Assembly: GCA_948356915.1 (NCBI GenBank)
Contig: CAOJCG010000012.1
Coordinates: 232-64,231 of the forward strand
DNA: 64,000 nucleotides
Direction: 5' to 3'
From: an uncultured Clostridiaceae bacterium
GTDB taxonomy: Bacteria; Bacillota; Clostridia; TANB77; CAG-508
Of the stretch, positions 4,145-55,574 are shown piece after piece. A program made the translations under genes and the position numbers. Position 1 is the stretch's first letter, and the number at the start of each line of letters is the position of its first letter. The notes below the pieces were generated by a model that ran no database searches, was not told where the DNA came from, and saw only the letters and a program-made list of their open reading frames with translations.

Positions 4145-4183
4145 GTAGGGGCAATTTTAATCGCCTGCCTTCGAAGACATTTC
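4145..4183. repeat. REP-like element (GTAGGGGC-hairpin-CTTCGAAGA)
   Basis: gtaggggcaattttaatcgcctgccttcgaagacatttc. This member of the dispersed family keeps the 5' GTAG. Confidence 0.6.
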
Positions 4184-6852: not shown

Positions 6853-7401
6853 ATGTCTCAAGAAAATGAAAAACTAGATAGTAAACTAGAGCCACAATGG
6901 TATGTAGTACATACATATTCTGGTTACGAAAATAAAGTAAAAACAGACTTAGAAAAAACAGTAAAAAATAGAGAACTTGAAGAATACTTCTTTGAAATAG
7001 TTGTACCAATGGAAGAACAAATTGAAATAAAAGAAGGTAAGAGAAAAGTAAACCTAAAAAAAGTTTTTCCTGGCTATGTTTTAATAAAAATGATTGTAAC
7101 AGAAGATACATGGTATATAGTTAGAAATACAAGAGGCGTTACTGGCTTTGTTGGCTCAGGAACAGATCCAATTGCATTAACAGAAGACGAAATAAGACAA
7201 ATGGGATTCGAAGTATCAATGCTTAAGTTTGATTATAATATAGGCGATAGTGTTAAAATAACAGGAGGCTCATTTGACGGATTTATAGGAACTATTCAAG
7301 AAATTAACAAAGACAAAAACAAAGTAAAAGTATCAATATCTATGTTTGGTAGAGAAACACCAATAGAGGTAGACTTCTCACAAATAGGTAAAATAAACTA
7401 G
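6853..7401 (+). CDS. nusG: Transcription termination/antitermination factor NusG
   Basis: NGN and KOW domains are present (WYVVHTYSGYENKV...GDSVKITGGSFDGFIGTI). Confidence 0.9.
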   Translation: MSQENEKLDSKLEPQWYVVHTYSGYENKVKTDLEKTVKNRELEEYFFEIVVPMEEQIEIKEGKRKVNLKKVFPGYVLIKMIVTEDTWYIVRNTRGVTGFVGSGTDPIALTEDEIRQMGFEVSMLKFDYNIGDSVKITGGSFDGFIGTIQEINKDKNKVKVSISMFGRETPIEVDFSQIGKIN

Positions 7402-7407
7402 TTTAAT

Positions 7408-7538
7408 AAGAAGTTAGAAGTTGGAAAATAGAAGTTAGAAGTTAGAAGTTAGAAAATAGGGTAAATTCTTCGAAGAAATTACTTAAATATCCGACTTCCG
7501 ACATCTGACTTCCGACCTCCAATCTCTAACCTCCAATT
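7408..7538. repeat. Composite repeat: purine arm (GAAGTTAGAAGTTGG)n, CTTCGAAGAAATTAC core, pyrimidine arm (TCCGACTTCCGAC...CCTCCAAT)
   Basis: Read directly in the sequence. The arms are largely complementary. It lies in the rplK 5' leader. Confidence 0.7.
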
Positions 7539-7604
7539 AAATAAATAATCTATAATTATTACGATGTAAATATACATCAAAACTTAAAGGAGGTGCAAAG
7601 AACA

Positions 7605-8033
7605 ATGGCAGAAAAAGAGATAAGTAATTTAATAAAATTACAAATAGAAGCAGGTAAAGCTACACCAGCTCCACCAGTAGGTCCAGCATTAGGTTCAAGT
7701 GGCGTTAACATTATGCAATTTGTAAAAGAATTTAATGATAGAACTGCAAATCAACCAGGAATGATAATACCAGTTGTTATAACAGTTTACAAAGATAAAT
7801 CATTTACATTCATAACAAAAGTACCACCAGTAGCAGTACTAATAAGAAAAGCTATAAAAATCGAAAAAGGTTCAGGAAAACCAAACAGAGAAAAAGTAGG
7901 AACAATTACTAAAGCTCAAGTAGAAGAAATAGCTAAACAAAAAATGCCAGACTTAAATGCAGCATCATTAGAAGCAGCAATGAGTATGGTTGCCGGAACT
8001 GCAAGAAGCATGGGTGTTGTAGTTGCTGACTAA
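7605..8033 (+). CDS. rplK: 50S ribosomal protein L11
   Basis: [10 protein letters not shown] and [11 protein letters not shown] motifs. ATG at 7605 follows RBS aaggagg; the track ORF starts at an upstream GTG. Confidence 0.9.
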
Positions 8034-8122
8034 TAAACAATATGTTTATTTTTAGGCAAATAACCAAACTAAAAATTGGGAGAATTTGAAAAAGTTCGTT
8101 AAAACCAAAAGGAGGAAAGAAA

Positions 8123-8800
8123 ATGGGAAAAAGATTTGAAGAGTGCTCAAAACTTATCGATAAAAACAAATTATACGAAGTAAAAGAAGCACTAGAAGTA
8201 ATCGAAAAAATGCCAAAAGCTAAATTCGATGAAACAGTTGAATTACACGTAAAACTAGGTGTAGATTCAAAACATGCTGACCAACAAGTAAGAGGTACAA
8301 CAGTACTTCCACATGGTACAGGTAAAACATTAAGAGTATTAGTATTTGCAAAAGGACCAAAAGCTGAAGAAGCCCAAAAAGCAGGAGCAGACTTTGTAGG
8401 AGCAGAAGAACTAATACCAAAAATAGAAAAAGAAAATTGGTTTGACTATGATGTAATAGTAGCAACTCCAGATATGATGGGTGTTGTAGGAAGATTAGGA
8501 AAAGTATTAGGACCAAAAGGATTAATGCCAAACCCTAAATCAGGAACAGTTACAATGGATGTAACAAAAGCTATAAACGAAATCAAATCAGGTAAAGTTG
8601 AATACAGATTAGACAAAACTAACATTATCCATTTAGGTTTTGGAAAAGTTTCATTTGGTGCAGAAAAATTAGCTGAAAACTATGAAACAATAATGAATGC
8701 AATAATAAAAGCTAAACCAGCAGCAGCTAAAGGACAATATATTAAATCTGTTGCAATTTCTACAACAATGGGACCTGGAATGTATATTGATCAAAAATAA
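8123..8800 (+). CDS. rplA: 50S ribosomal protein L1
   Basis: 225-aa L1 with a strong RBS. Confidence 0.95.
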
Positions 8801-8927
8801 TAATTATAGTAGCCAAAGAAAGTAGGCATAAAAACAAGACCTACCGAGGCATAAAAAGAAAAGAGATTTACAAAAAATCTAATCTTTTATGCCAAATGTG
8901 GCTATAAAGATTAGATTTTTATATTAG

Positions 8928-9062
8928 AACAGAAGTCAGAAGGAAGAGAGTGGAAATTAAATAGTGTAGATGATTAGAAGACATTGTAGGGACGACTATT
9001 AGTCGTCCGCACTTCGAAGAAACTACCCAAAATCCGACATCCGACATCTGACCTCCGATATC
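8928..9062. repeat. Composite repeat with embedded REP hairpin (GTAGGGACGACTATTAGTCGTCC) and CTTCGAAGAAACTACCC core
   Basis: Purine arm agaagtcagaaggaagagagtgg. Pyrimidine arm atccgacatccgacatctgacctccgat. It lies in the rplJ leader. Confidence 0.7.
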
Positions 9063-9090
9063 AAAATTCTTTAGGAGGTGAAAAAACAAA

Positions 9091-9591
9091 ATGGCAAGTG
9101 AAGCAATATTAAAACAAAAAGAAGAAGAAGTTAGTACATTAGCAGAAAAATTCAAAAACTGCAATTTAGTACTTTTAACAGATTACAGAGGAATAACAGT
9201 TGATGATGTAACTAATTTAAGAAATAGCTTAAGAGAAACAAAAGCAGAATACAAAGTAATAAAAAATAATATAGTAAGAAGAGCTTTAGAAACAAATGGT
9301 GTAGAAGGTTTAGAAGGAGCACTAGAAGGACCAACAGCAGTTATAACAACAGATAGTGAATATTTAGATCCATTAAAAGCAATTTACAAATTTGCTAAAG
9401 ACAATGAGTACTATAAAATAAAAGGTGGAATAGTTGAAGGTAAAGTATTAAGTGTAGAAGAATTAATAACTTTAGCAAAATTACCATCAAGACAAGAATT
9501 ACTTGGAATGCTTGCAGGTGGTTTACTTGGAACTATTTCAAAACTTGCAGTCGGCTTAGATCAAGTTAGAATGCAAAAAGAAAATGCATAA
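9091..9591 (+). CDS. rplJ: 50S ribosomal protein L10
   Basis: 166-aa L10. Confidence 0.9.
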   Translation: MASEAILKQKEEEVSTLAEKFKNCNLVLLTDYRGITVDDVTNLRNSLRETKAEYKVIKNNIVRRALETNGVEGLEGALEGPTAVITTDSEYLDPLKAIYKFAKDNEYYKIKGGIVEGKVLSVEELITLAKLPSRQELLGMLAGGLLGTISKLAVGLDQVRMQKENA

Positions 9592-9593
9592 AA

Positions 9594-9861
9594 CAGAAGA
9601 CGGAAGTCGAAAGACAGAAGTCAGAAGAAATATATGTAGGGAATAAATTGGTATAAAATAATATAATAGGGAATACCAAATTTTATCCAATACAAATAAA
9701 AAAGGTAGGGGCGAGCATCGCTCGTCCGAAAAAGAGTAGTGAACTTAAAACACTAGAAATATAAAGAAAGTTGGAAAAGGCAGAATAGAGAAGAAAGAAA
9801 TTAATAAGTATAAATATAAATTATATGAAATCCGACTTCCGACATCTGACCTCCGACTTCA
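9594..9861. repeat. Composite repeat cluster (purine arm, two GTAGGG-hairpin REPs, pyrimidine arm) in the rplL leader
   Basis: Contains cagaagacggaagtcgaaagacagaagtcagaag, then gtagggaataaattggtat, gtaggggcgagcatcgctcgtcc and atccgacttccgacatctgacctccgacttc. Confidence 0.65.
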
Positions 9862-9883: not shown

Positions 9884-10243
9884 ATGATAGAAGAATTAAT
9901 CGAAAAAATTGACGCTTTAACAGTAGCTGAACTTGCTGAATTAGTTAAAGCAATTGAAGAAAAATATGGAGTATCTGCAGTAGCAGCAGCTGCACCAGCA
10001 GCAGGAGGAGCTGCACCAGCAGCAGAAGAAAAATCATCTTTTGACGTAGTATTAAAAGATGCAGGAGCAAACAAAATCCAAGTAATCAAAGTTGTAAGAG
10101 ACGTTACAGGATTAGGATTAAAAGAAGCTAAAGAATTAGTAGACGGAGCTCCAAAAACAGTTAAAGAAGGAGCAAGCAAAGAAGAAGCAGAAGAAATAAA
10201 AGCTAAATTTACAGAAGCAGGAGCAGTTATCGAACTTGCTTAA
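9884..10243 (+). CDS. rplL: 50S ribosomal protein L7/L12
   Basis: A-rich hinge and conserved C-terminal domain. Confidence 0.95.
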
Positions 10244-10251
10244 GTTTAAAT

Positions 10252-10288
10252 AAAAATTGCTAAAATTTAATTTTAGCAATTTTTTTGT
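10252..10288 (+). terminator. Rho-independent terminator after rplL
   Basis: aaaattgctaaaat/attttagcaatttt stem plus a T-run. Confidence 0.7.
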
Positions 10289-10446
10289 ATACTATGAAAG
10301 TACTTGACTAGATAGTCAAATTAATTGAAAAATACGAAAATAAGTTATAAAATTATAATTGTACAATTGACAATCAAAAATATAAGTTATAAAATATAAA
10401 AAATACAATATATATGTAGAAAACAAGTAAAAGGAGAAAACTAAAA

Positions 10447-11463
10447 ATGGTTATATTATTAGATGCAATGGGAGGAGATAACGCACCAGATGCAAATATA
10501 AAAGGAGCAGTAAAAGCGATAAAAGATATAGAAGCTGAAGTATGCTTAGTTGGAAATAAAGATATAATTAATTCTAAAATAAAACAATTTTATGGCAAAA
10601 ATGATATTTCAGAAATATCACCAAGGCTAACTATACATCATACAACAGAAACTATTGAAATGTGTGATATACCAACACAAGCAATAAAACATAAAAAAGA
10701 TTCTTCAATGGTAGTAGGTTTTAACTTACTTAAAGAAGGAAAAGGAGATGTGTTTATATCTGCTGGAAATTCAGGTGCACTTTTAACAGGAGCAACACTA
10801 TTAGTTGGAAGAATTAAAGGAATAGATAGACCAGCATTAGCAGGAATACTTCCAGCATATAAAGGAAAACTAATGTTAATGGATTGTGGCTCAAATACAA
10901 ATTGTAAGCCAATAAATTTACTTCAATTTGCACAAATGGCAACTATATATAATAGGAATACATTTGGAATAGAAAGACCAACAGTTGGTTTATTAAATAT
11001 AGGAACAGAAGAAACAAAAGGAAATGATTTAGTAAAAGAAAGCTACAAATTATTAAAAGAAAAATCAGAAGAACTAAATTTAAACTTTGTAGGAAATGTT
11101 GAAGGAAGAGATGCATTTTCAGGTAAGCTTGATATATTAGTAGCAGATGGATATACAGGAAATGTATTTTTAAAAACAGTAGAAGGTGTCGGAAAATTAG
11201 TAAAAAGAACATTAACAGAAAGCCTAAAGAAAAATATTTGGGCTACAATAGGTGCAATACCTGCGCTTCCATCAATAAAAGCATTTTCTAAAACTATGGA
11301 TTATAAAGAATATGGAGGAGCACTTTTCTTAGGAGTAAAAAAACCAGTAGTAAAAGCACATGGAAGTAGTGATGAAAAACTATTTGAATTTACAATAAAG
11401 CAAGCAGAACAATTTGTAAAAAACAAAGCAGTAGAGAAAATGATAGAAGAATTTGAAAAATAG
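10447..11463 (+). CDS. plsX: Phosphate acyltransferase PlsX
   Basis: 338-aa PlsX (LDAMGGDNAP motif) followed by acpP. Confidence 0.9.
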   Translation: MVILLDAMGGDNAPDANIKGAVKAIKDIEAEVCLVGNKDIINSKIKQFYGKNDISEISPRLTIHHTTETIEMCDIPTQAIKHKKDSSMVVGFNLLKEGKGDVFISAGNSGALLTGATLLVGRIKGIDRPALAGILPAYKGKLMLMDCGSNTNCKPINLLQFAQMATIYNRNTFGIERPTVGLLNIGTEETKGNDLVKESYKLLKEKSEELNLNFVGNVEGRDAFSGKLDILVADGYTGNVFLKTVEGVGKLVKRTLTESLKKNIWATIGAIPALPSIKAFSKTMDYKEYGGALFLGVKKPVVKAHGSSDEKLFEFTIKQAEQFVKNKAVEKMIEEFEK

Positions 11464-11538
11464 TATTGACAATTATATAAAGTTGTATTATTGTTAATGC
11501 GAGCATAAGAGAAGTACCGAGAGGGGGTGTAATTATAA

Positions 11539-11781
11539 ATGACACAAGAAGAAATATTTGAAAAAGTAAAAGGAATTATAGTTGAACAATTAGGTGTTAC
11601 AGAAACATCAGTAACAATGGAAGCTTCTTTTATAGATGACTTAGGAGCAGACTCATTAGATATTGTTGAATTAATAATGGCATTAGAAGAAGAATTCGAT
11701 ACAGAAATTCCAGATTCAGATGCTGAAAAAGTAGTTACAGTAGGTGACGTTGTTGACTACATAAAAGATCATGTTGAATAA
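11539..11781 (+). CDS. acpP: Acyl carrier protein
   Basis: DLGADSLD phosphopantetheine-attachment motif. 80 aa. Confidence 0.9.
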
Positions 11782-12037
11782 AACATAGAAATTAATTTTA
11801 ATATTATAAAAAAATAAAATAGTAGAAGTTTATTATAATTTCTGCTATTTTATTTTTATTATAGTATAGGAAAAAATAAATTTTAAATTGTAGGGGGAGA
11901 GCAGTACTCGTCAGCGTGGCGAAGCTACCTGTATTATAACTATATTGTATTTCTATGTTCAGCATATTGGAAAAAATTTCAAATACCTCTTTCAATTTCA
12001 AAAATTATGTTATATAATGTAACAAAAGGAGAGACAA

Positions 12038-12706
12038 ATGGAATTACAAATTTTAGAGAATAATATTAATTATACATTTAAAAATAAAGAATTATTAAAA
12101 AATGCGTTAACACATACTTCGTATGCATTTGAAAGAAATACAGCTAGTAATGAAAAGCTAGAATTTTTAGGAGATAGTATATTAGAGTTTATATCTAGCA
12201 AATATTTATATAAAAATTTTCCTAATCTTTCAGAAGGTGAACTTACTAAAGTTAGAGCTACAATTGTATGTGAAGAAAGTTTATATAAAATTGCTAAAAA
12301 ACATAACTTTGATAAATTTATATTTTTAGGTAGAAGTGAAACAGCAGTGCATAAAGAAGTAAGAAAGGCAATTATGGCAGATAGCGTAGAAGCGGTAATT
12401 GCAGCTATATACTTTGACTCTAATTTAGAAGAAGCAGAACGTTTTATTATAGAAAACTTAAAAGAAGAGGCACTAATAGCTAGTAAAAATGTAGGGCAAA
12501 AAGATTATAAAACCGTACTACAAGAAAAATTACAAGCTAATGGAGAAGTACATATAAAATATGAAATTATAAAAGAAGAAGGACCAGACCATAATAAGAA
12601 GTTTACAGCAAGAGTAAGTTGCAATGGTAAAGCACTATCAACAGGAGAAGGAAGAACTAAGAAAGCAGCAGAAATGGAAGCAGCCCGAAAGGCAATGAAC
12701 AAATAA
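12038..12706 (+). CDS. rnc: Ribonuclease III
   Basis: ERLEFLGDS signature plus a dsRBD. 222 aa. Confidence 0.9.
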   Translation: MELQILENNINYTFKNKELLKNALTHTSYAFERNTASNEKLEFLGDSILEFISSKYLYKNFPNLSEGELTKVRATIVCEESLYKIAKKHNFDKFIFLGRSETAVHKEVRKAIMADSVEAVIAAIYFDSNLEEAERFIIENLKEEALIASKNVGQKDYKTVLQEKLQANGEVHIKYEIIKEEGPDHNKKFTARVSCNGKALSTGEGRTKKAAEMEAARKAMNK

Positions 12707-13837: not shown

Positions 13838-13925
13838 AAAAGTGTGTCAAATGGGGTGGGGGATACACATCTTTAAAAGATAAAGTGTGTCAATATCCCC
13901 CGTCCCATTTGGCACACTTTTTTAA
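13838..13925. repeat. Nested long palindrome (family 2): GTGTGTCAAATGGGGTGGGGGATA...TATCCCCCGTCCCATTTGGCACAC
   Basis: About 21-bp outer stem enclosing an inner hairpin. A near-identical copy lies at 46123-46215. Confidence 0.65.
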
Positions 13926-14001
13926 TTGTTTATTTTTTGTTTTATTTTCATTTGCATAAAAATCTAATAATAACAAATACTTATAAAAAAAGGAGATTTT
14001 T

Positions 14002-15019: not shown

Positions 15020-16447
15020 ATGCAAAAAACAATGAAAATAATTGGCAAAATAATATCTTTATTAATTACATTAACATTAATATTTATAGCTTATAAAGTA
15101 TATAGTATAAATAATTTTAATGAATATATAAGGGCAGAATATAATAGTGGACTTTCTAATTTTTCAAGAGATACACAAAATAAATATTCAAAAAAGGATA
15201 GCTACAAAATAGAAAATACTGATTATAATGATGCAATGTTTTTTAAAACTATACCAGTTACGCCTAATACTTCATATAAAGTAAGTTGCATGATAAAAAC
15301 TGAAAAGGTAGTAAATAAAGAAGAAAATACAGATGCAGGAGCACATATATGTATAAATGAAACAACAGAAAAATCTGACAATGTAGTAGGAACAACAGAT
15401 TGGAAAAAAATAGAATTTGTATTTAATTCAAAAAATAGAAATGAAGTTCAAGTAGGTTTTAGGCTTGGAGGAAACTTTGATGACTCAAAAGGTACAGCAT
15501 GGTTTTCAGATATAACAATAGAGCAAGGAATAGCAGATAACTCCAACAATTGGAAGTTCTTATGCTTAATATTTGATAAAACAGACGTAAATTTAGAAAT
15601 AAATGGAGGGCTTAAAAACTTTAATTTAACATTATCAAATTCAGATGTAGAAGATATGAAATTATGTATAAACAGATTTAAAAATTCTATGGAACAGATG
15701 TCAAAAGGAAAAATGAAAGTAGAATGTAACATTTTAGAAGTAAAAACACCAATAACATCTATGTCATATGACGACGAAAACGGTTATTTTGTGTCACCAT
15801 ATGATGTAAAAGATGTAATAGACAAATATATACAAACAGGAAAATATGACCATATATTTATAGCATTTAGAACAGGAAATATAAATGCAAAAAATGAAAT
15901 ACCAGTAAATGATTGGATAGGACTTGGAAGTATGGAATATAGAAATATAGGATTTTCAAATATAAGACTTCCAAATAGTGACTCAAATTACATATATAAA
16001 TATGATGAAAGAATAAATACATTCCCAGAAGAAGTATATGTACATGAGTTTTTACATACTCTAGAAAGAAATGCACTAGAATACGGATATGAAAGACCAG
16101 AACTTCACGATAATGAAAAATATGGTTATAAAAGCCAAAGTATAACAGGATTAAAAAAATGGTATGAAGATTACATGAACAAAAATATAAAATCTTCTAT
16201 AAAAGGTTATATAGGACTTCCAGAAGAAATATATACAAAAAAACCATCAAAAAACACAGATTTTGAATATTCAAGAAAATTAGACTATCTTGAAGAACCA
16301 CAAAATATAATAGAAGAATTGAATATATTATTTAAAAGAATAGGAAATTTATTTAATGAAATAAGTAATGGAATACGGAAGGCAGAAGTCAGAAGTCGGA
16401 AGTCAGAACTAGAAGTTATAGTTTATAGGTTAGAGACTAGAAGCTAG
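15020..16447 (+). CDS. Membrane-anchored/secreted hypothetical protein with an HExxH motif
   Basis: N-terminal TM segment and a HEFLH motif. The last ~20 codons (AEVRSRKSELEVIVYRLETRS) are read through the purine-arm repeat, so the true C-terminus is uncertain. Confidence 0.45.
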   Translation: MQKTMKIIGKIISLLITLTLIFIAYKVYSINNFNEYIRAEYNSGLSNFSRDTQNKYSKKDSYKIENTDYNDAMFFKTIPVTPNTSYKVSCMIKTEKVVNKEENTDAGAHICINETTEKSDNVVGTTDWKKIEFVFNSKNRNEVQVGFRLGGNFDDSKGTAWFSDITIEQGIADNSNNWKFLCLIFDKTDVNLEINGGLKNFNLTLSNSDVEDMKLCINRFKNSMEQMSKGKMKVECNILEVKTPITSMSYDDENGYFVSPYDVKDVIDKYIQTGKYDHIFIAFRTGNINAKNEIPVNDWIGLGSMEYRNIGFSNIRLPNSDSNYIYKYDERINTFPEEVYVHEFLHTLERNALEYGYERPELHDNEKYGYKSQSITGLKKWYEDYMNKNIKSSIKGYIGLPEEIYTKKPSKNTDFEYSRKLDYLEEPQNIIEELNILFKRIGNLFNEISNGIRKAEVRSRKSELEVIVYRLETRS

Positions 16448-16605
16448 AAGTCGAAGAAGAGAAGATAGATAGAGAGTATTTTATTATAGTATAGCAAAAA
16501 GCAATTTTAACTTTAGGGAAAAGGGGCTTGTGTCTGCCCGCTCTTCGAAGAAATTACCCTAAAATCTGACCTCTGATATCTGCCTTCTGTCCTCTGTCCA
16601 CAAGA
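16376..16605. repeat. Composite repeat (purine arm, REP hairpin GGGGCTTGTGTCTGCCC, CTTCGAAGAAATTACCC, pyrimidine arm) in the queA leader
   Basis: Arms are ggcagaagtcagaagtcggaagtcagaac and atctgacctctgatatctgccttctgtcctctgtcc. Confidence 0.7.
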
Positions 16606-20266: not shown

Positions 20267-20370
20267 GAAATGGGCTGTAAAAAAAGTATGCCAAAAGGCA
20301 CGAGAGAAATTGACACTCCTCGAGGAGTCAATTTCCTCCGTGCCTTTTGGCACACTTTTTTTACAGCCCA
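20267..20370. repeat. Long imperfect palindrome with GGGCTGTAAAAAAA / TTTTTTTACAGCCC flanks; likely bidirectional terminator
   Basis: tgccaaaaggcacgagagaaattgacactcctc / gaggagtcaatttcctccgtgccttttggca. Confidence 0.6.
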
Positions 20371-20472
20371 TTTCATTTTTTATGTACTATATATTTTTAA
20401 TTATAGCAAAGGAATATAATAAACGAACCCAAAATTATAATACTCATATAGTATAGTAGGAGGTTGCATGTT

Positions 20473-21117
20473 ATGAATCAAATAGAAAAAAAGACAATAA
20501 AAGGAGAGTTAAAGTATAAAAATACAGTAATACTTACATACAAAATAGAATATCCACAAATGATTTCTACTAAATATACATATGGGAAGGAAATATTTAA
20601 TAATTACAATAAAAAAAAGGCAATTGACTTAGAAAAATATATAAAAACAGATTTATATGAAAATGCCAAAGAAGTATATGAATATAATAAGGCAAATGGC
20701 TATCCTATTATGGTATTCGAAGTAATATCAGAATATCATATAACTTATAATGAAGGATTTATTGTAAGCTTATATCAAGATGAATACCAATTTACAGGAG
20801 GAGCACATGGAAGTACAATAAGAACTTCTCAAAACTGGAATTTAAAAGAGGCAAGTACTATACCACTAACATACTTTTTTCCTAATAACCCATATTATAC
20901 AATAGACATATTAAAAGAAATAAATAGTCAAATAAAAACGCAAATAGAAGAAGGGAAAAACCAATATTTTGAAAACTATTGTGAACTAGTATTAGAAACA
21001 TTTAATTTAAGCAACTATTATATAATGCCAAATCAAATAGCAATATATTTTCAACAATACGATATAGCACCATACTCAAGTGGAATACCAGTATTTTTAA
21101 TCAGGACCGCACACTAG
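20473..21117 (+). CDS. DUF3298/DUF4163 (RsiV-like) domain protein
   Basis: FTGGAHG motif. The last codons (IRTAH) and the stop lie inside a REP copy. Confidence 0.6.
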   Translation: MNQIEKKTIKGELKYKNTVILTYKIEYPQMISTKYTYGKEIFNNYNKKKAIDLEKYIKTDLYENAKEVYEYNKANGYPIMVFEVISEYHITYNEGFIVSLYQDEYQFTGGAHGSTIRTSQNWNLKEASTIPLTYFFPNNPYYTIDILKEINSQIKTQIEEGKNQYFENYCELVLETFNLSNYYIMPNQIAIYFQQYDIAPYSSGIPVFLIRTAH

Positions 21118-21166
21118 GGACGGTCCTTTTCGTTCCGAAATCGGAACGCTGGGGACACTCCTTAAG
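21103..21166 (+). repeat. REP copy (TAGGGACGGTCCTTTTCGTTCCGAAATCGGAACGCTGGGGACACTCCTTAAG)
   Basis: Same sequence as the REPs flanking the RAYT at 23444 and 24428. Confidence 0.8.
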
Positions 21167-21249
21167 TAGAATAACAATAGAAAAATGTGATTGAAAACTG
21201 ATAATAATTATGATAAAATTATATATATTAAATATATAAGGAGCAAAAA

Positions 21250-23444: not shown

Positions 23445-24486
23445 CGTGTTAGGGACGCACGTTAGGGACGGTCCTTTTCGTTCCAAAATCGGAACGCTAG
23501 GGACACTCCTTAAACTAAATAATGGGGAATTATGGTTTATTGAGATTGGATTAAAAGATATAATAGGGGAAATTATATTTTAAACTAAAAACAAAAATTA
23601 AATAGGGGCTTAAAATAATAAAAGAAAGAAGGTAATATTATGCCCCGAATGGCAAGAAAAAGTTTAGAAAAAGGTTTTATGCATATAATGGCTCAAGGAA
23701 TAAAAAAAGAAAAAATATTCTACAAAGATGACTATAAAGAAAAATATATTAAATTAATAAAGTTTTTTAAAGAAAAGCAAAAAGTAGAAATTATTAATTA
23801 TTGTGTAATGAATAATCATGTTCACATTATTATATACACTGAAGATATAGATGAATTAACAATATTTATGAGAAAGTTAAATACAACATATGCTTTACAT
23901 TATAATAAATCAGAAAATAGAGTAGGCTATGTATTTAGAAATAGATTTGAAAGTAAAGAAATATATAATCAAGATTACCTAACAAAATGTATAAAATATG
24001 TACATATGAATCCAGTAAAAGCAGGAATTACGAAAACAGAAGGAGAATATAAATATTCAAGTTATAATGACTATATAAACAAAAAAGGAATTATAACAGA
24101 TGAATTATTACAAAAAATATTTAATTCAAAATATAATTATTTAAAGGAATTCTTAAAGATAGAATATGACGAAGAATTATTCGAAGAACTAGAAAAAGAA
24201 GAACTTACAAATGAAAAGCTAAAAGAACAAATAGAACAATTTATAAAAAAAGAACAAGTAACCTTAGGAGAATTAAAAAACGATAAAAGATTAATAAAAA
24301 AACTATATAATACAATGAAGTTAAAACCAACAAAAGCGAAATTAGGAGAATGTATAGGACTAAGTAGAACAAGAATAAGTAAGATATTAAATGATTATAA
24401 AGAAAATAAAAAATAAGGAGTAAGCAAAGGAGTGTCCCCAGCGTTCCGAATTCGGAACGAAAAGGACCGTCCCTAGCGTGCGGAAG
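23444..24486 (+). mobile_element. REPtron: REP, RAYT gene, inverted REP
   Basis: REP at 23444-23512 (+) and its reverse complement at 24428-24486 flank a Y1/HUH transposase. The unit sits between the ATPase and permease genes of one ABC transporter. Confidence 0.8.
23640..24416 (+). CDS. REP-associated tyrosine transposase (RAYT, IS200/IS605-like Y1 HUH)
   Basis: HUH motif NNHVHIIIY and catalytic Tyr region YVFRNRF...KYVHMNPVKAGI. 258 aa, intact. Confidence 0.8.
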   Translation: MPRMARKSLEKGFMHIMAQGIKKEKIFYKDDYKEKYIKLIKFFKEKQKVEIINYCVMNNHVHIIIYTEDIDELTIFMRKLNTTYALHYNKSENRVGYVFRNRFESKEIYNQDYLTKCIKYVHMNPVKAGITKTEGEYKYSSYNDYINKKGIITDELLQKIFNSKYNYLKEFLKIEYDEELFEELEKEELTNEKLKEQIEQFIKKEQVTLGELKNDKRLIKKLYNTMKLKPTKAKLGECIGLSRTRISKILNDYKENKK

Positions 24487-27741: not shown

Positions 27742-27823
27742 AAGAAAAGGAAAAAATTGATTTGTAGGGATACCATTTGTATGTATACACGTTGTGCTCG
27801 TTTATTATTTTAGATGTAGGGGC

Positions 27824-33278: not shown

Positions 33279-33345
33279 AATTTAGGCAGATATTTTAAAT
33301 TATATTAATCTATGAAGATTAATTTAGTGCATATAAGAAGATACT

Positions 33346-33590
33346 AATTGGAAGTTGGAAGTTGGAGGTTAGAAGTTGGAAAAATTAATTCTAACTCTTA
33401 GCCAAAATCTTGAAAACTTAAATTTAGAATATATATTATACGCACTGTACGGGGAGAAAAGACTTTCCGAGTAACTTTAGATATTTTATATAAATATCAA
33501 CAAATCTAGGATGAAAAATGGAATAAGATGTTGTAGAAAACCGATTTAAAAAGGAATTTACGCTTCCAACCTCTAACTTCCAACATCCAA
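33346..33590. repeat. Composite repeat: (GGAAGTTGG)n arm, ~180-nt spacer, CCAACCTCTAACTTCCAACATCC arm in the rpsL-rpsG spacer
   Basis: Arms are ttggaagttggaagttggaggttagaagttgg and gcttccaacctctaacttccaacatccaa. Confidence 0.7.
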
Positions 33591-46122: not shown

Positions 46123-46215
46123 CTGTAAAAAAGTGTGTCAAATGGGACGGGGGATATTGACACATCTTTAAAAGATAAAGAGTGTCAATATCCCCCGTCC
46201 CATTTGACATTTAAA
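46123..46215. repeat. Nested long palindrome (family 2), near-identical to 13838-13925
   Basis: ggctgtaaaaaagtgtgtcaaatgggacgggggata ... tatcccccgtcccatttgaca. The 21-bp outer stem is perfect. Confidence 0.7.
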
Positions 46216-46300
46216 ATATAATAATTGATTTTTTTAGTCAACTATAATATAATTCAATAAATAAAAACCAAAAAAATAATTTGAAATATAAAATTTATAG

Positions 46301-50672: not shown

Positions 50673-50679
50673 TAAGGAA

Positions 50680-50766
50680 ACTAGAAATTAGAGAATATAT
50701 AAAAAAACTTCGAGGGATTTGCTAAAAATCCAACATCCAACTTCCAACCTCTAACTTCTACATTCC
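50680..50766. repeat. Partial composite repeat (CTTCGAG core-like segment plus pyrimidine arm TCCAACATCCAACTTCCAACCTCTAACTTC) in the rnhB leader
   Basis: Read directly in the sequence. Confidence 0.6.
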
Positions 50767-50781: not shown

Positions 50782-51409
50782 TTGAAAGAAAAAGAATTAC
50801 AAAGATTAACTGAACTAAAACAAATAGAAGAAAACTTACATTCACAAGGAATAGAATACATATGTGGAATAGATGAAGCAGGGCGTGGTCCACTAGCAGG
50901 GCCAGTAGTAGTTGCAGCAACAATAATGCCAAAAGATTCAATGATAGAAGGAGTTAATGACTCAAAAAAAGTTTCAGAGAAAAAAAGAGAATTACTATAC
51001 GAAAAAATAACTGAAGAAGCAATAGCGTGGGGAGTAGGTATAATAGACCAAAAAGAAATAGATAGAATAAATATACTAAATGCAACAAAAGAAGGACTAA
51101 CTCAAGCACTAAAAGCACTAACTGTAAAGCCAGATAGAATAATAGTAGATGCCCTAAATGGAATAGATACACTTCGGAATACCATACACATCAATAATAA
51201 AGGGAGACGCAAAATGCTATTCAATAGCAGCAGCCTCAATAATAGCAAAAGTAACAAGAGATAGAATAATGCGTCAGTGGGATGAAATATACCCTATGTA
51301 TGGCTTTGAAAAACATAAGGGATATGGAACAAAAGCACACATAGAAGCAATAAAAGAATATGGCTTATGCCCATTACATAGACTAAGCTTTACTAAGAAT
51401 ATAAGATGA
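50782..51409 (+). pseudogene. rnhB: Ribonuclease HII, frameshifted
   Basis: ICGIDEAGRGPLAGPVV is in frame 1. The conserved C-terminal region [31 protein letters not shown]...[14 protein letters not shown]...HRLSF is in the +1 frame, and the shift is near 51172-51178 (cttcgga). Confidence 0.75.
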
Positions 51410-51475: not shown

Positions 51476-51790
51476 ATGTACTACATATATATGTTAAGAT
51501 GTGAAGATAACTCAATTTATACAGGAATAGCAAAAGATTTAGAACATAGATTAAATGAGCATTTTACTAAAGATGAAAAGTGTGCAAAATATACAAAATC
51601 GCATAAAGCTCAGAAATTAGAAATAGCGTGGAAAACACAAAATAAGTCTTTAGCATCTAAATTGGAATATGCAATAAAGAAGCTAAATAAGAATAGAAAA
51701 GAAAAATTAATATGTGAACCTAACTTGCTAAGAGAATTCTTTAAAGAGAAAATAGATAAAAATGAATACTTATTATATAAAATAAAATAA
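51476..51790 (+). CDS. GIY-YIG nuclease-family protein (UPF0213-like)
   Basis: YYIYMLRC..SIYTGIA...RL.EH motifs. 104 aa. Confidence 0.65.
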   Translation: MYYIYMLRCEDNSIYTGIAKDLEHRLNEHFTKDEKCAKYTKSHKAQKLEIAWKTQNKSLASKLEYAIKKLNKNRKEKLICEPNLLREFFKEKIDKNEYLLYKIK

Positions 51791-53170: not shown

Positions 53171-53320
53171 TGTAGGGGCTTAATCGGTTAGGAATACCAA
53201 AGAGAACTTATCGGATTACGCCCTCTAAACGTATATTTAAGATTAATACCAATATTAAAATTATCTAAGGGCGAAATTTGGTATTCCCAGAGAGGTATTC
53301 CTTACTGATTTAGCCCCTAC
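53171..53320. repeat. Inverted pair of REP-like elements (GTAGGGGCTTAATCGGTTAGGAATACC ... GGTATTCCTTACTGATTTAGCCCCTAC)
   Basis: BIME-like inverted REP pair. A direct half-copy lies at 57631-57690. Confidence 0.65.
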
Positions 53321-55544: not shown

Positions 55545-55574
55545 CAAATGTAGGGGTCGCCGAAGGCGGCGACC
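55545..55574. repeat. Perfect palindromic REP GTAGGGGTCGCCG-AA-GGCGGCGACCCCTAC
   Basis: 13-bp perfect stem with GTAG/CTAC ends, between the MMPL gene and the downstream gene. Confidence 0.7.

Follow-up and report, generated by a model that had tools for sequence, protein, structure and literature searches.

The spacers ahead of rplK, rplJ and rplL in a 64,000-nt stretch of genomic DNA from an uncultured low-GC gut Clostridia lineage (28% GC; hereafter the window, to which all searches of the source genome refer) carry composite palindromic repeats. Each composite combines two complementary heptamer arrays, one purine, (RGAAGTY)n, and one pyrimidine, (RACTTCY)n, with a palindromic core, and this arrangement is found in three of the four spacers between nusG and rplL. 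These elements are probably dispersed, fast-turnover palindromic repeats that resemble repetitive extragenic palindromic (REP) sequences and MITEs (miniature transposable elements with inverted repeats), with arms built of heptamer arrays, and that have generic RNA-hairpin effects at most. They are not read here as a purpose-built Shine-Dalgarno (SD)/anti-SD switch or as a new class of ribosomal protein (r-protein) regulator. What is new is a variant of known intergenic repeats in an uncultured lineage, in which features of REP sequences and bacterial interspersed mosaic elements (BIMEs) are joined to paired heptamer arrays.

Composite repeats across the window

A preliminary description of this DNA had claimed shared composite repeats with complementary arms upstream of rplK, rplJ and rplL, and this claim is borne out by the sequence read, by excess over chance and by minimum free energy (MFE) folds. 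The repeats exist and were described well; the reading given with them is partly supported and overreaches. The family also extends beyond positions 7408-9861, to which it had appeared to be confined. Its components in the three spacers, followed by the further copies, are listed below.

7409-7459, + strand: nusG-rplK purine arm of the AGAAGTT type, beginning 7 nt past the nusG stop codon (repeat family D4)
7460-7489, + strand: nusG-rplK core TAGGGTAAATTCTTCGAAGAAATTAC, from the sequence read and repeat family D2
7490-7536, + strand: nusG-rplK pyrimidine arm, a mosaic with GAC-type units 5ʹ and AAC-type units 3ʹ
8928-8985, + strand: rplA-rplJ purine arm of the GTC type, weak and degenerate
8986-9028, + strand: rplA-rplJ core, REP/BIME-like, GTAG-GGACGACTATTAGTCGTCC-GCA-CTTCGAAGAAA-CTAC-CC (a GTAGGG hairpin, CTTCGAAGAAA and CTACCC)
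9033-9059, + strand: rplA-rplJ pyrimidine arm of the TCCGAC type, whose final unit CCUCC is paired to the rplJ SD in the predicted fold
9593-9628, + strand: rplJ-rplL purine arm of the GTC type, beginning 2 nt past the rplJ stop codon
9636-9688 and 9705-9727, + strand: two GTAGGG-headed REP-like hairpins in the rplJ-rplL spacer, also present in relatives without arms
9770-9860, + strand: degenerate purine stretch, AT-rich core and pyrimidine arm (9831-9860) of the rplJ-rplL spacer, ending 10 nt before the rplL SD (D2)
16376-16600, + strand: copy before queA, with purine arm, REP-like core and pyrimidine arm
33345-33590, + strand: rpsL-rpsG arms around a conserved central segment
34085-34406, + strand: three complete tandem elements filling the rpsG-fusA spacer
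50676-50760, + strand: decayed copy before the RNase HII gene (rnhB)

Within the window, TCCGACWTCYGAC has 9 matches at up to one mismatch where 0.02 are expected, and CTTCGAAGAAA has 10 matches where 0.97 are expected. Arrays of period 7 are detected by Tandem Repeats Finder, and the unit is a 7-mer rather than the 8-mer originally proposed. A search that assumes no pattern also recovers the arm and the core-plus-arm families (D1, D2 and D4), including a core-plus-arm family of 53 nt. Five loci share the core and the pyrimidine arm in the same register, with 60-79% identity (D2), and the order of unit variants ATCCGAC(T/A)TCCGACATCTGAC is common to the copies at 7489, 9032 and 9830.

The nusG-rplK element forms one contiguous palindrome of 128 nt, with a palindromic core TAGGGTAAATTCTTCGAAGAAATTACTTAAAT that is centred on TTCGAA and has no GC hairpin. 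It is the one mixed element, of GTT and GAC type, and its arms form U·G wobbles in the sense RNA only. The core CTTCGAAGAAAT, which had been described for every leader, occurs in two of these three spacers and is missing from the third. The elements measure 85-340 nt overall, have complementary arms and contain no open reading frame (ORF), matching the definition of MITEs as small non-coding sequences with terminal inverted repeats. In the MFE folds the arms are paired; z values range from −6.8 to −8.3 in these three spacers, and from −2.5 to −8.6 when all seven spacers in the 64 kb that hold arms and cores are counted.

A copy follows the stop codon of the preceding gene, or a leader (for example that of L10), and comes before the A-rich stretch that precedes the SD. 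The purine arm begins 0-7 nt past the stop codon in five of the seven cases in the window, and the pyrimidine arm ends ~8-16 nt ahead of the SD in six of the seven. A position just before the ribosome-binding site, as initially reported, applies to rplL (10 nt from arm to SD) and rplJ (16 nt) but not to rplK, where the distance is 54 nt. At the queA copy the purine array (16376-16447) encodes the final ~24 residues of a 475-aa protein (ORF 15020-16447) and contains its stop codon. The orthologue of this ORF at the related locus L013 terminates ahead of the insertion site, indicating that the C-terminus has been recoded by the repeat.

The genes of the L10 region are arranged as follows.

6853-7401, + strand: nusG
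7605-8033, + strand: rplK
8123-8800, + strand: rplA
9091-9591, + strand: rplJ
9884-10243, + strand: rplL

The genes that come after rplL (10244-12706) are plsX, acpP and rnc, not rpoB/rpoC, which is unusual for an L10 operon; rpoC is likewise not found before rpsL, which is unusual for a str operon. The RNase HII ORF (50782-51264) encodes 160 aa that cover profile positions 1-115 of 199, which may point to truncation or a frameshift; the next gene noted, at 51476, is of the GIY-YIG type. A separate small family of dispersed repeats, GTCAATATCCCCCGTCCCATTTGGCA..., lies at 13865-13945, 20303-20383 and 46160-46240 (D6/D7) and is unrelated to the heptamer elements.

Turnover among relatives and the underlying spacer sequences

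The elements were compared with related loci of 14-20 kb each from metagenome-assembled genomes (MAGs) of rabbit, human, mouse and ruminant gut (26-36% GC). Baseline lengths across 80 related species are ~100 nt for the nusG-rplK spacer, 125-160 nt for rplA-rplJ and 35-70 nt for rplJ-rplL; the corresponding spacers of the window measure 204, 290 and 292 nt. Flanking proteins can be 96-100% identical, yet the orthologous spacers lack elements or carry different or other repeats. Comparison of orthologous leaders, which had been put forward as a check on the leader interpretation, thus reveals elements that are not conserved but absent, swapped or replaced in near-identical genomes.

Several individual sites illustrate this turnover. 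The nusG-rplK copy is absent from L011 and L013, whose L10 proteins are 99% and 96% identical to that of the window, and the unfilled site bears a small hairpin in place of the element. The same copy is present in L012, L014, L016/17 and L036, down to 77% L10 identity. In L014 (5426-5765) it has grown to 340 nt and has three higher-order repeats of ~34 nt in each arm, matched between the arms, which could reflect either nested copies or concerted expansion of both arms. The queA copy is absent from L013, where the gene gap is ~14 nt. Where the window has three heptamer elements in the rpsG-fusA spacer, other genomes with identical S7 have either an additional small ORF or inverted pairs of REPIN-like type (GCGTTAGGGACGTTTCCTAATCGGAAAC), one or two in number. 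Insertion polymorphism at orthologous sites, a hallmark of MITEs, is therefore seen at nusG-rplK, at the site between the 475-aa ORF and queA, at rpsL-rpsG and at rpsG-fusA.

Exchange of whole interiors is also evident. Within the species, the rplJ copy has two unrelated interior versions while the L10 leader and the SD are invariant across eight contigs; its REP/BIME-like core is swapped for a plain-core variant in six of the eight. In L012 (L10 99% identical), two tandem copies replace the entire rplJ-rplL spacer, including a conserved hairpin described below. Arm types switch jointly between genomes, such that GTC purine arms accompany GAC pyrimidine arms and GTT arms accompany AAC arms. 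For three neighbouring copies the type is GAC in the window and AAC in L012. Both this joint change of arm type and the non-repetitive core that the copies have in common point toward copying between loci combined with local slippage, and they argue against a conserved regulator.

Beneath the repeats, the spacers retain sequences that appear to be older or ordinary leader components.

8795-8930, + strand: L10-leader-like region with a terminator-like stem (RF00557, permissive Rfam scan)
9734-9756, + strand: small hairpin GAGTAGTGAACTTAAAACACTAG in the rplJ-rplL spacer, not of the repeat family
7548-7557, + strand: block CTATAATTAT (TATAAT at 7551-7556), present in every relative, with or without the nusG-rplK element

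The L10-leader-like region matches RF00557 at 37.4 bits, which is under the gathering score of 44 (E = 7.5e-4), and the match spans the protein-binding and terminator-like stems. The region is identical in eight same-species contigs, and in L018 it makes up nearly the whole of the 139-nt rplA-rplJ spacer, where heptamer arms are absent. Because the repeat sits between this region and the rplJ SD, it is an addition to the leader rather than an alternative to it. The statement that the repeats differ from the gene-specific L10 leader therefore stands for the repeats themselves, which have no Rfam match, whereas an L10-leader-like region does persist upstream at rplJ. No Rfam family reaches its gathering score anywhere in the window, and no L10-leader match does so in the relatives. 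Permissive scans of the spacers return only the sub-threshold L10 leader and chance miRNA and snoRNA matches to the low-complexity arms. A weak site from a promoter scan ends at 8788 and would fit the start of the L10 leader; it serves as a lead only, from a scan that performs no better than shuffles.

Most of the relatives examined, to as low as 68% L10 identity, have the hairpin at 9734-9756, and its stem shows compensatory changes (GTGA/TCAC and GTGG/CCAC). This hairpin is lost in L012, is not seen in L036 and has no Rfam match. The GTAGGG-headed hairpins at 9636-9727 are likewise ancestral to the rplJ-rplL arms. In the rpsL-rpsG spacer, a central segment at ~33415-33500 (..cgcactgtacggggagaaaagactttccgagtaac..) is kept in all nine identical-S7 genomes, with or without arms. 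It has no Rfam match and is a candidate S7/str-operon leader. Arms thus flank older sequences in both the rplJ-rplL and the rpsL-rpsG spacers.

The CTATAATTAT block, which lies 3ʹ of the element, is a candidate −10 box for rplK. If it has this function, the nusG-rplK element is located outside the rplK leader, and the rplK transcript may start after the element. A scan with promoter and terminator consensus sequences, which gave no more matches than shuffled sequence and carries little information in DNA of 28% GC, does not confirm this assignment.

Probable origin, possible RNA-level effects and competing explanations

The core links the heptamer elements to a wider set of REP-like modules. 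Plain and hairpin cores share the frame TAGGG..CTTCGAAGAAAT..TAC, which indicates a relationship between the elements with heptamer arms and the REP-like modules. The head GTAGGGGC has 24 matches at up to one mismatch in the 64 kb where 7.4 are expected, on both strands and often in inverted pairs, and the pairs 4145+/4332−, 36543+/36643− and 53172+/53313− lie 100-190 nt apart in the manner of REPINs and BIMEs. GTAG-footed imperfect palindromes of 20-40 nt occur at 8986 (GTAGGGACGAC..GTCGTCC) and 9705 (GTAGGGGCGAGC..GCTCGTCC), as well as at 27816, 4145 and 36543, and they represent the core module only. The GTAG hairpin with the CTTCGAAGAAAT core is also found without arms, at 4145 and 27816. 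Further GTAGGGGC-headed hairpins are located at 55550/55572 and 57630, and a subtype with a long GGTTAGGAATACC insert is seen at 53171, 57629 and, in the rplJ-rplL spacer, 9636.

GTAG-headed palindromes on both strands and in inverted pairs are the REP/BIME signature recognised by REP-associated tyrosine transposases (RAYTs), and tandem BIME numbers vary between strains (PMC3333891). RAYTs have been reported from Clostridia (PMC5581495). The window contains one RAYT-like locus.

23445-24485, + strand: RAYT-like Y1 transposase locus (gene 23640-24416) with inverted flanks of ~55 nt (D11)

The encoded protein of 258 aa has an HVH motif and scores 39.4 bits against the Pfam family Y1_Tnp (cut-off 23); with NCBIfam models it reaches 71.8 bits for REP_Tyr_transpos (cut-off 80), compared with 19.7 bits for IS200. 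The flanks, which carry CGTTAGGGACG heads and a GTTCC..GGAAC hairpin, resemble the dispersed GTAGGG modules without being identical to them. An extra copy of the flank repeat is found at 21103-21174, 2.3 kb upstream of the locus, and the CGTTAGGGACG head also occurs in the REPIN-like pairs that fill the rpsG-fusA spacer of sister genomes. The RAYT-like protein is a candidate mobiliser of the GTAG- and TAGGG-headed modules. REP/BIME sequences do not account for the whole repeat, as the heptamer arrays, which form the bulk of each element, have no REP/BIME counterpart. No transposase with heptamer-array ends was seen in the 64-kb window or the 20-kb loci, where no dedicated search for one was made.

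In the model that we favour, a full copy comprises a 5ʹ RGAAGTY array, a core of the form TAGGG..TTCTTCGAAGAAAT..TACC, which in some copies includes a GC hairpin of the REP/BIME type headed by GTAG, and a 3ʹ RACTTCY array. Slippage would lengthen and shorten the arrays. Recombination or transposition would copy whole elements or blocks between loci, with the RAYT-like protein as a candidate for the GTAG-headed core. Copies accumulate in short co-directional spacers, chiefly in highly expressed translation operons. The elements at rplJ, rplL, rpsG and fusA sit within operons whose genes are transcribed together in bacteria studied so far. Transcription through the elements of the rplJ-rplL and rpsL-rpsG-fusA operons would presumably yield the long imperfect hairpins that are predicted. 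Such hairpins might act in generic ways, as an RNase III or other processing site, as a 3ʹ or 5ʹ stabiliser, by modulating coupling, or by incidentally masking the SD at rplJ and rplL.

Arrays of the same heptamer type are not restricted to this lineage. Metagenome and viral contigs were scanned with a pattern of four pyrimidine units, and figures refer to the matches listed. The metagenome matches are arrays in soil, sediment and water contigs of 28-68% GC (L091-L170), and about one fifth of the metagenome arrays listed have a complementary purine array within 300 nt upstream. Several of these pairs apparently run from a stop codon to the next start codon, as in the apparent gap-pgk spacer of L117, where the genes are assigned from flanking translations only. 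Viral contigs hold at least 120 loci (L220-L447), whereas two controls with permuted units gave 56 and 54. Heptamer arrays are thus generally common, and those of the present type outnumber the controls at least twofold. The viral contig L292 (58% GC) has (TCTGACC)n in six intergenic gaps (61, 4179, 7698, 8378, 8992 and 12392) with no partner purine array. In four of these gaps a start codon lies within ~10 nt of the array and no SD is present (ccctcccATG, gccATG, cttcccATG). A full-text search of the literature library for these strings yielded no relevant paper.

Several observations weigh against the favoured model. An upstream copy is found for five of nine r-protein and elongation-factor genes in the window versus two of ~49 others (Fisher p = 5e-4), and in the 14-20 kb loci of the relatives, arms were detected in r-protein spacers only. 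Among the matches listed, for the real and both control patterns, the purine-rich array of a pair is upstream in 34 cases and downstream in 4 (p = 6e-7). The enrichment in translation operons and the purine-first polarity are hints of selection or of a directed mechanism, and a purely selfish model leaves both unexplained. Filled and unfilled sites reveal no unambiguous target-site duplication, with flanks that are rich in TAA/TTAA and thus AT-rich. The copies are just 60-79% alike, so that no recent burst is visible. In the rpsL-rpsG and rplJ-rplL spacers the good arms (9593-9628 and 9831-9860 in the latter) stand ~200 nt apart around ancestral conserved sequence, which a single contiguous insertion does not explain. 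In addition, the NCBIfam REP_Tyr_transpos score of the transposase is under the cut-off, and its link to the heptamer arms is circumstantial.

The shared orientation of all copies was considered as a sign of co-orientation with transcription and was rejected, because the reverse complement of a purine-core-pyrimidine element has the identical arrangement. The purine-first order is likewise the same on both strands and provides no evidence of co-orientation with genes.

The main rival explanation is a selected RNA clamp, in which a long-range helix between the arms brings the stop codon beside the downstream SD and preserves coupling across a long structured spacer; the helix may also provide a cleavage site for RNase III, so that neighbouring cistrons differ in stability. 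The placement of arms between stop codon and SD is as expected for such a clamp, as are the enrichment in translation operons and the stop-to-start layout in unrelated metagenomic contigs such as L117. The folds pair the arms of rpsL-rpsG and of rplJ-rplL over a conserved leader of ~200 nt. Arm types also covary from genome to genome, and the wobbles of the mixed nusG-rplK element occur in the sense RNA. An rnc gene is present in the window, and in E. coli rplL is known to be coupled to rplJ over a long range. However, a consistent sense-strand folding advantage, sought as a sign of selection at the RNA level, was not found, and close relatives lose or replace arms without apparent cost. An insertion into any short spacer would also land near both a stop codon and an SD. 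We consider the clamp unlikely on balance.

A broader form of this idea holds that purine-first inverted heptamer arrays are a widespread, selected class of intercistronic RNA in bacteria and phages. Such arrays would reach from the stop codon to the next ribosome-binding site and act in translational coupling or in processing and stability, preferentially in translation operons, and the Clostridia version would be fused to a REP-like core. This generalisation seems to us quite unlikely.

Purely local origin would require that each array arose in place by slippage from chance heptamers beside a pre-existing small hairpin, with no mobility between loci. Element-free sites do have a small hairpin and single unit-like words, namely AGAATTTAAG..CTTAAAT after nusG (L011/L013) and AGAGGTC at the L013 queA site. 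Units are also more alike within an arm than to the opposite arm, and heptamer simple sequence repeats of arbitrary sequence are common. Against this, distant loci share a non-repetitive core and the order of unit variants, and the type changes in concert at three neighbouring loci between the window and L012. The present data lean toward copying between loci, making a purely local origin very unlikely.

The preliminary description had proposed SD/anti-SD mimicry as the organising feature. In that case the pyrimidine arm, an anti-SD mimic, would sequester the downstream SD while the purine arm, an SD mimic, competes, creating a translational switch shared by r-protein genes. MFE folds do pair the terminal CCUCC unit with the SDs of rplK, rplJ and rplL. 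Partition-function folding puts the chance of an unpaired SD at 0.00 with the element against 0.75 without it for rplJ, and at 0.01 against 0.59 for rplL; for these two genes a CCUCC unit is predicted to pair with the SD. The CCTCC before rplJ is also retained in most strains and relatives. For rplK, rpsG, fusA and rnhB, however, no SD masking due to the element is predicted and the effect at queA is modest, leaving strong masking in two of the seven genes. CCTCC arises because position 4 of the pyrimidine unit, which is C, T or A in 35, 28 and 19 units across the lineage, happens to be C; it is found in two of nine SD-proximal units and in four of 20 elsewhere and is therefore not enriched near the SD. 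By the rplL SD it has become TATCC or CATCC in five of eight same-species contigs. Whole elements are missing or replaced where flanking proteins are near-identical, and arrays of the same heptamer pattern are present in unrelated high-GC bacteria and in viruses. The mimicry claim is thus not sustained, the family does not qualify as an SD-sequestering switch on these sequence and folding data, and the sequestration hypothesis as a whole is highly improbable. Masking at rplJ and rplL is possibly a local side effect that does not define the family.

Least probable in our view is the idea that the arrays bind one protein per 7 nt of single-stranded RNA or DNA (a cold-shock or S1-type protein with an OB fold, or a DNA-binding protein) and thereby recruit or titrate a factor near start codons: the strict 7-nt periodicity, the pyrimidine arrays that stand alone directly before start codons in the six intercistronic gaps of L292, and similar proposals for TAACTGA repeats upstream of start codons, and CspB binding at one protein per heptamer (PMC4679880), favour it, but the arrays of this lineage are complementary pairs that would be double-stranded, their units drift (GTC/GTT, with position 4 free), and no candidate protein was identified.

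Significance and comparison with known repeat systems

If the elements are selfish or neutral, the odd long "leaders" in r-protein operons of gut Clostridia MAGs represent repeat insertions over ordinary leaders, and such leaders should not be annotated as new regulators. The elements are also hypervariable markers with which strains could be typed, and they are likely to cause breaks in assemblies. If selection is involved, then the enrichment in translation operons, the placement from stop codon to SD and the purine-first order of paired arrays, near-universal in unrelated bacteria and viruses, matter more. The many natural variants with and without a copy at the same sites make this lineage convenient for testing the effects of repeats on operon mRNAs.

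Small non-coding inverted-repeat insertions that lie in spacers, are co-transcribed and fold as RNA are familiar from the Correia elements of Neisseria, ERIC of enterobacteria, BOX/RUP of pneumococcus and MIRU of mycobacteria. Correia elements are cut by RNase III, and MIRUs lie between operon genes. Unlike the present elements, these families have arms of unique sequence, their copies are usually more alike, and target-site duplications are known for several of them.

The L10 leader (RF00557) shares the rplA-rplJ spacer with one of the copies and has conserved protein-binding and terminator-like stems. It is, however, a separate segment (8795-8930) upstream of the repeat, which itself has no Rfam match and is not conserved.

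Heptamer over-representation in bacterial intergenic DNA has been noted since 2007 without explanation (PMC4692102). The (GGGAATC)n arrays of Xanthomonas (Rehm et al. 2015, PMC4692102) are likewise intergenic 7-nt arrays, often in convergent pairs (70-75 per genome), capable of forming stem-loops and variable in length between genomes. Convergent inverted pairing of this type is found in the window, with the purine arm first in all pairs. The two families differ in phylum and in the unit, which is prone to G-quadruplex formation in Xanthomonas, while RGAAGTY has no G-runs. No palindromic or REP-like core and no r-protein operon bias have been reported for the Xanthomonas arrays (PMC4692102). 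The TAACTGA arrays of Beggiatoaceae, Cyanobacteria and Bacteroidetes (MacGregor 2015, PMC4679880) are located just 5ʹ of start codons, are over-represented before translation genes, occur inside r-protein operons including that of fusA, and exhibit indels in 7-nt steps between strains. They are direct repeats only, of another unit, have no complementary arm and usually replace an SD rather than precede one; a protein-binding role has been proposed for them (PMC4679880). Neither family has an established function (PMC4692102, PMC4679880).

The closest resemblance of the core is to REP/BIME sequences and to REPINs with their RAYT/TnpA-REP proteins in E. coli and Pseudomonas (PMC3333891, PMC3116915, PMC5581495). 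Both are extragenic imperfect palindromes with a 5ʹ GTAG head that occur on both strands and in inverted pairs, with strain-variable tandem copy number and a Y1 transposase gene flanked by inverted repeats in the same genome. Classical REP/BIME sequences differ in having no tandem heptamer arms; the heads here are GTAGGG or GTTAGGGAC, and the RAYT-like protein falls just under the NCBIfam cut-off.

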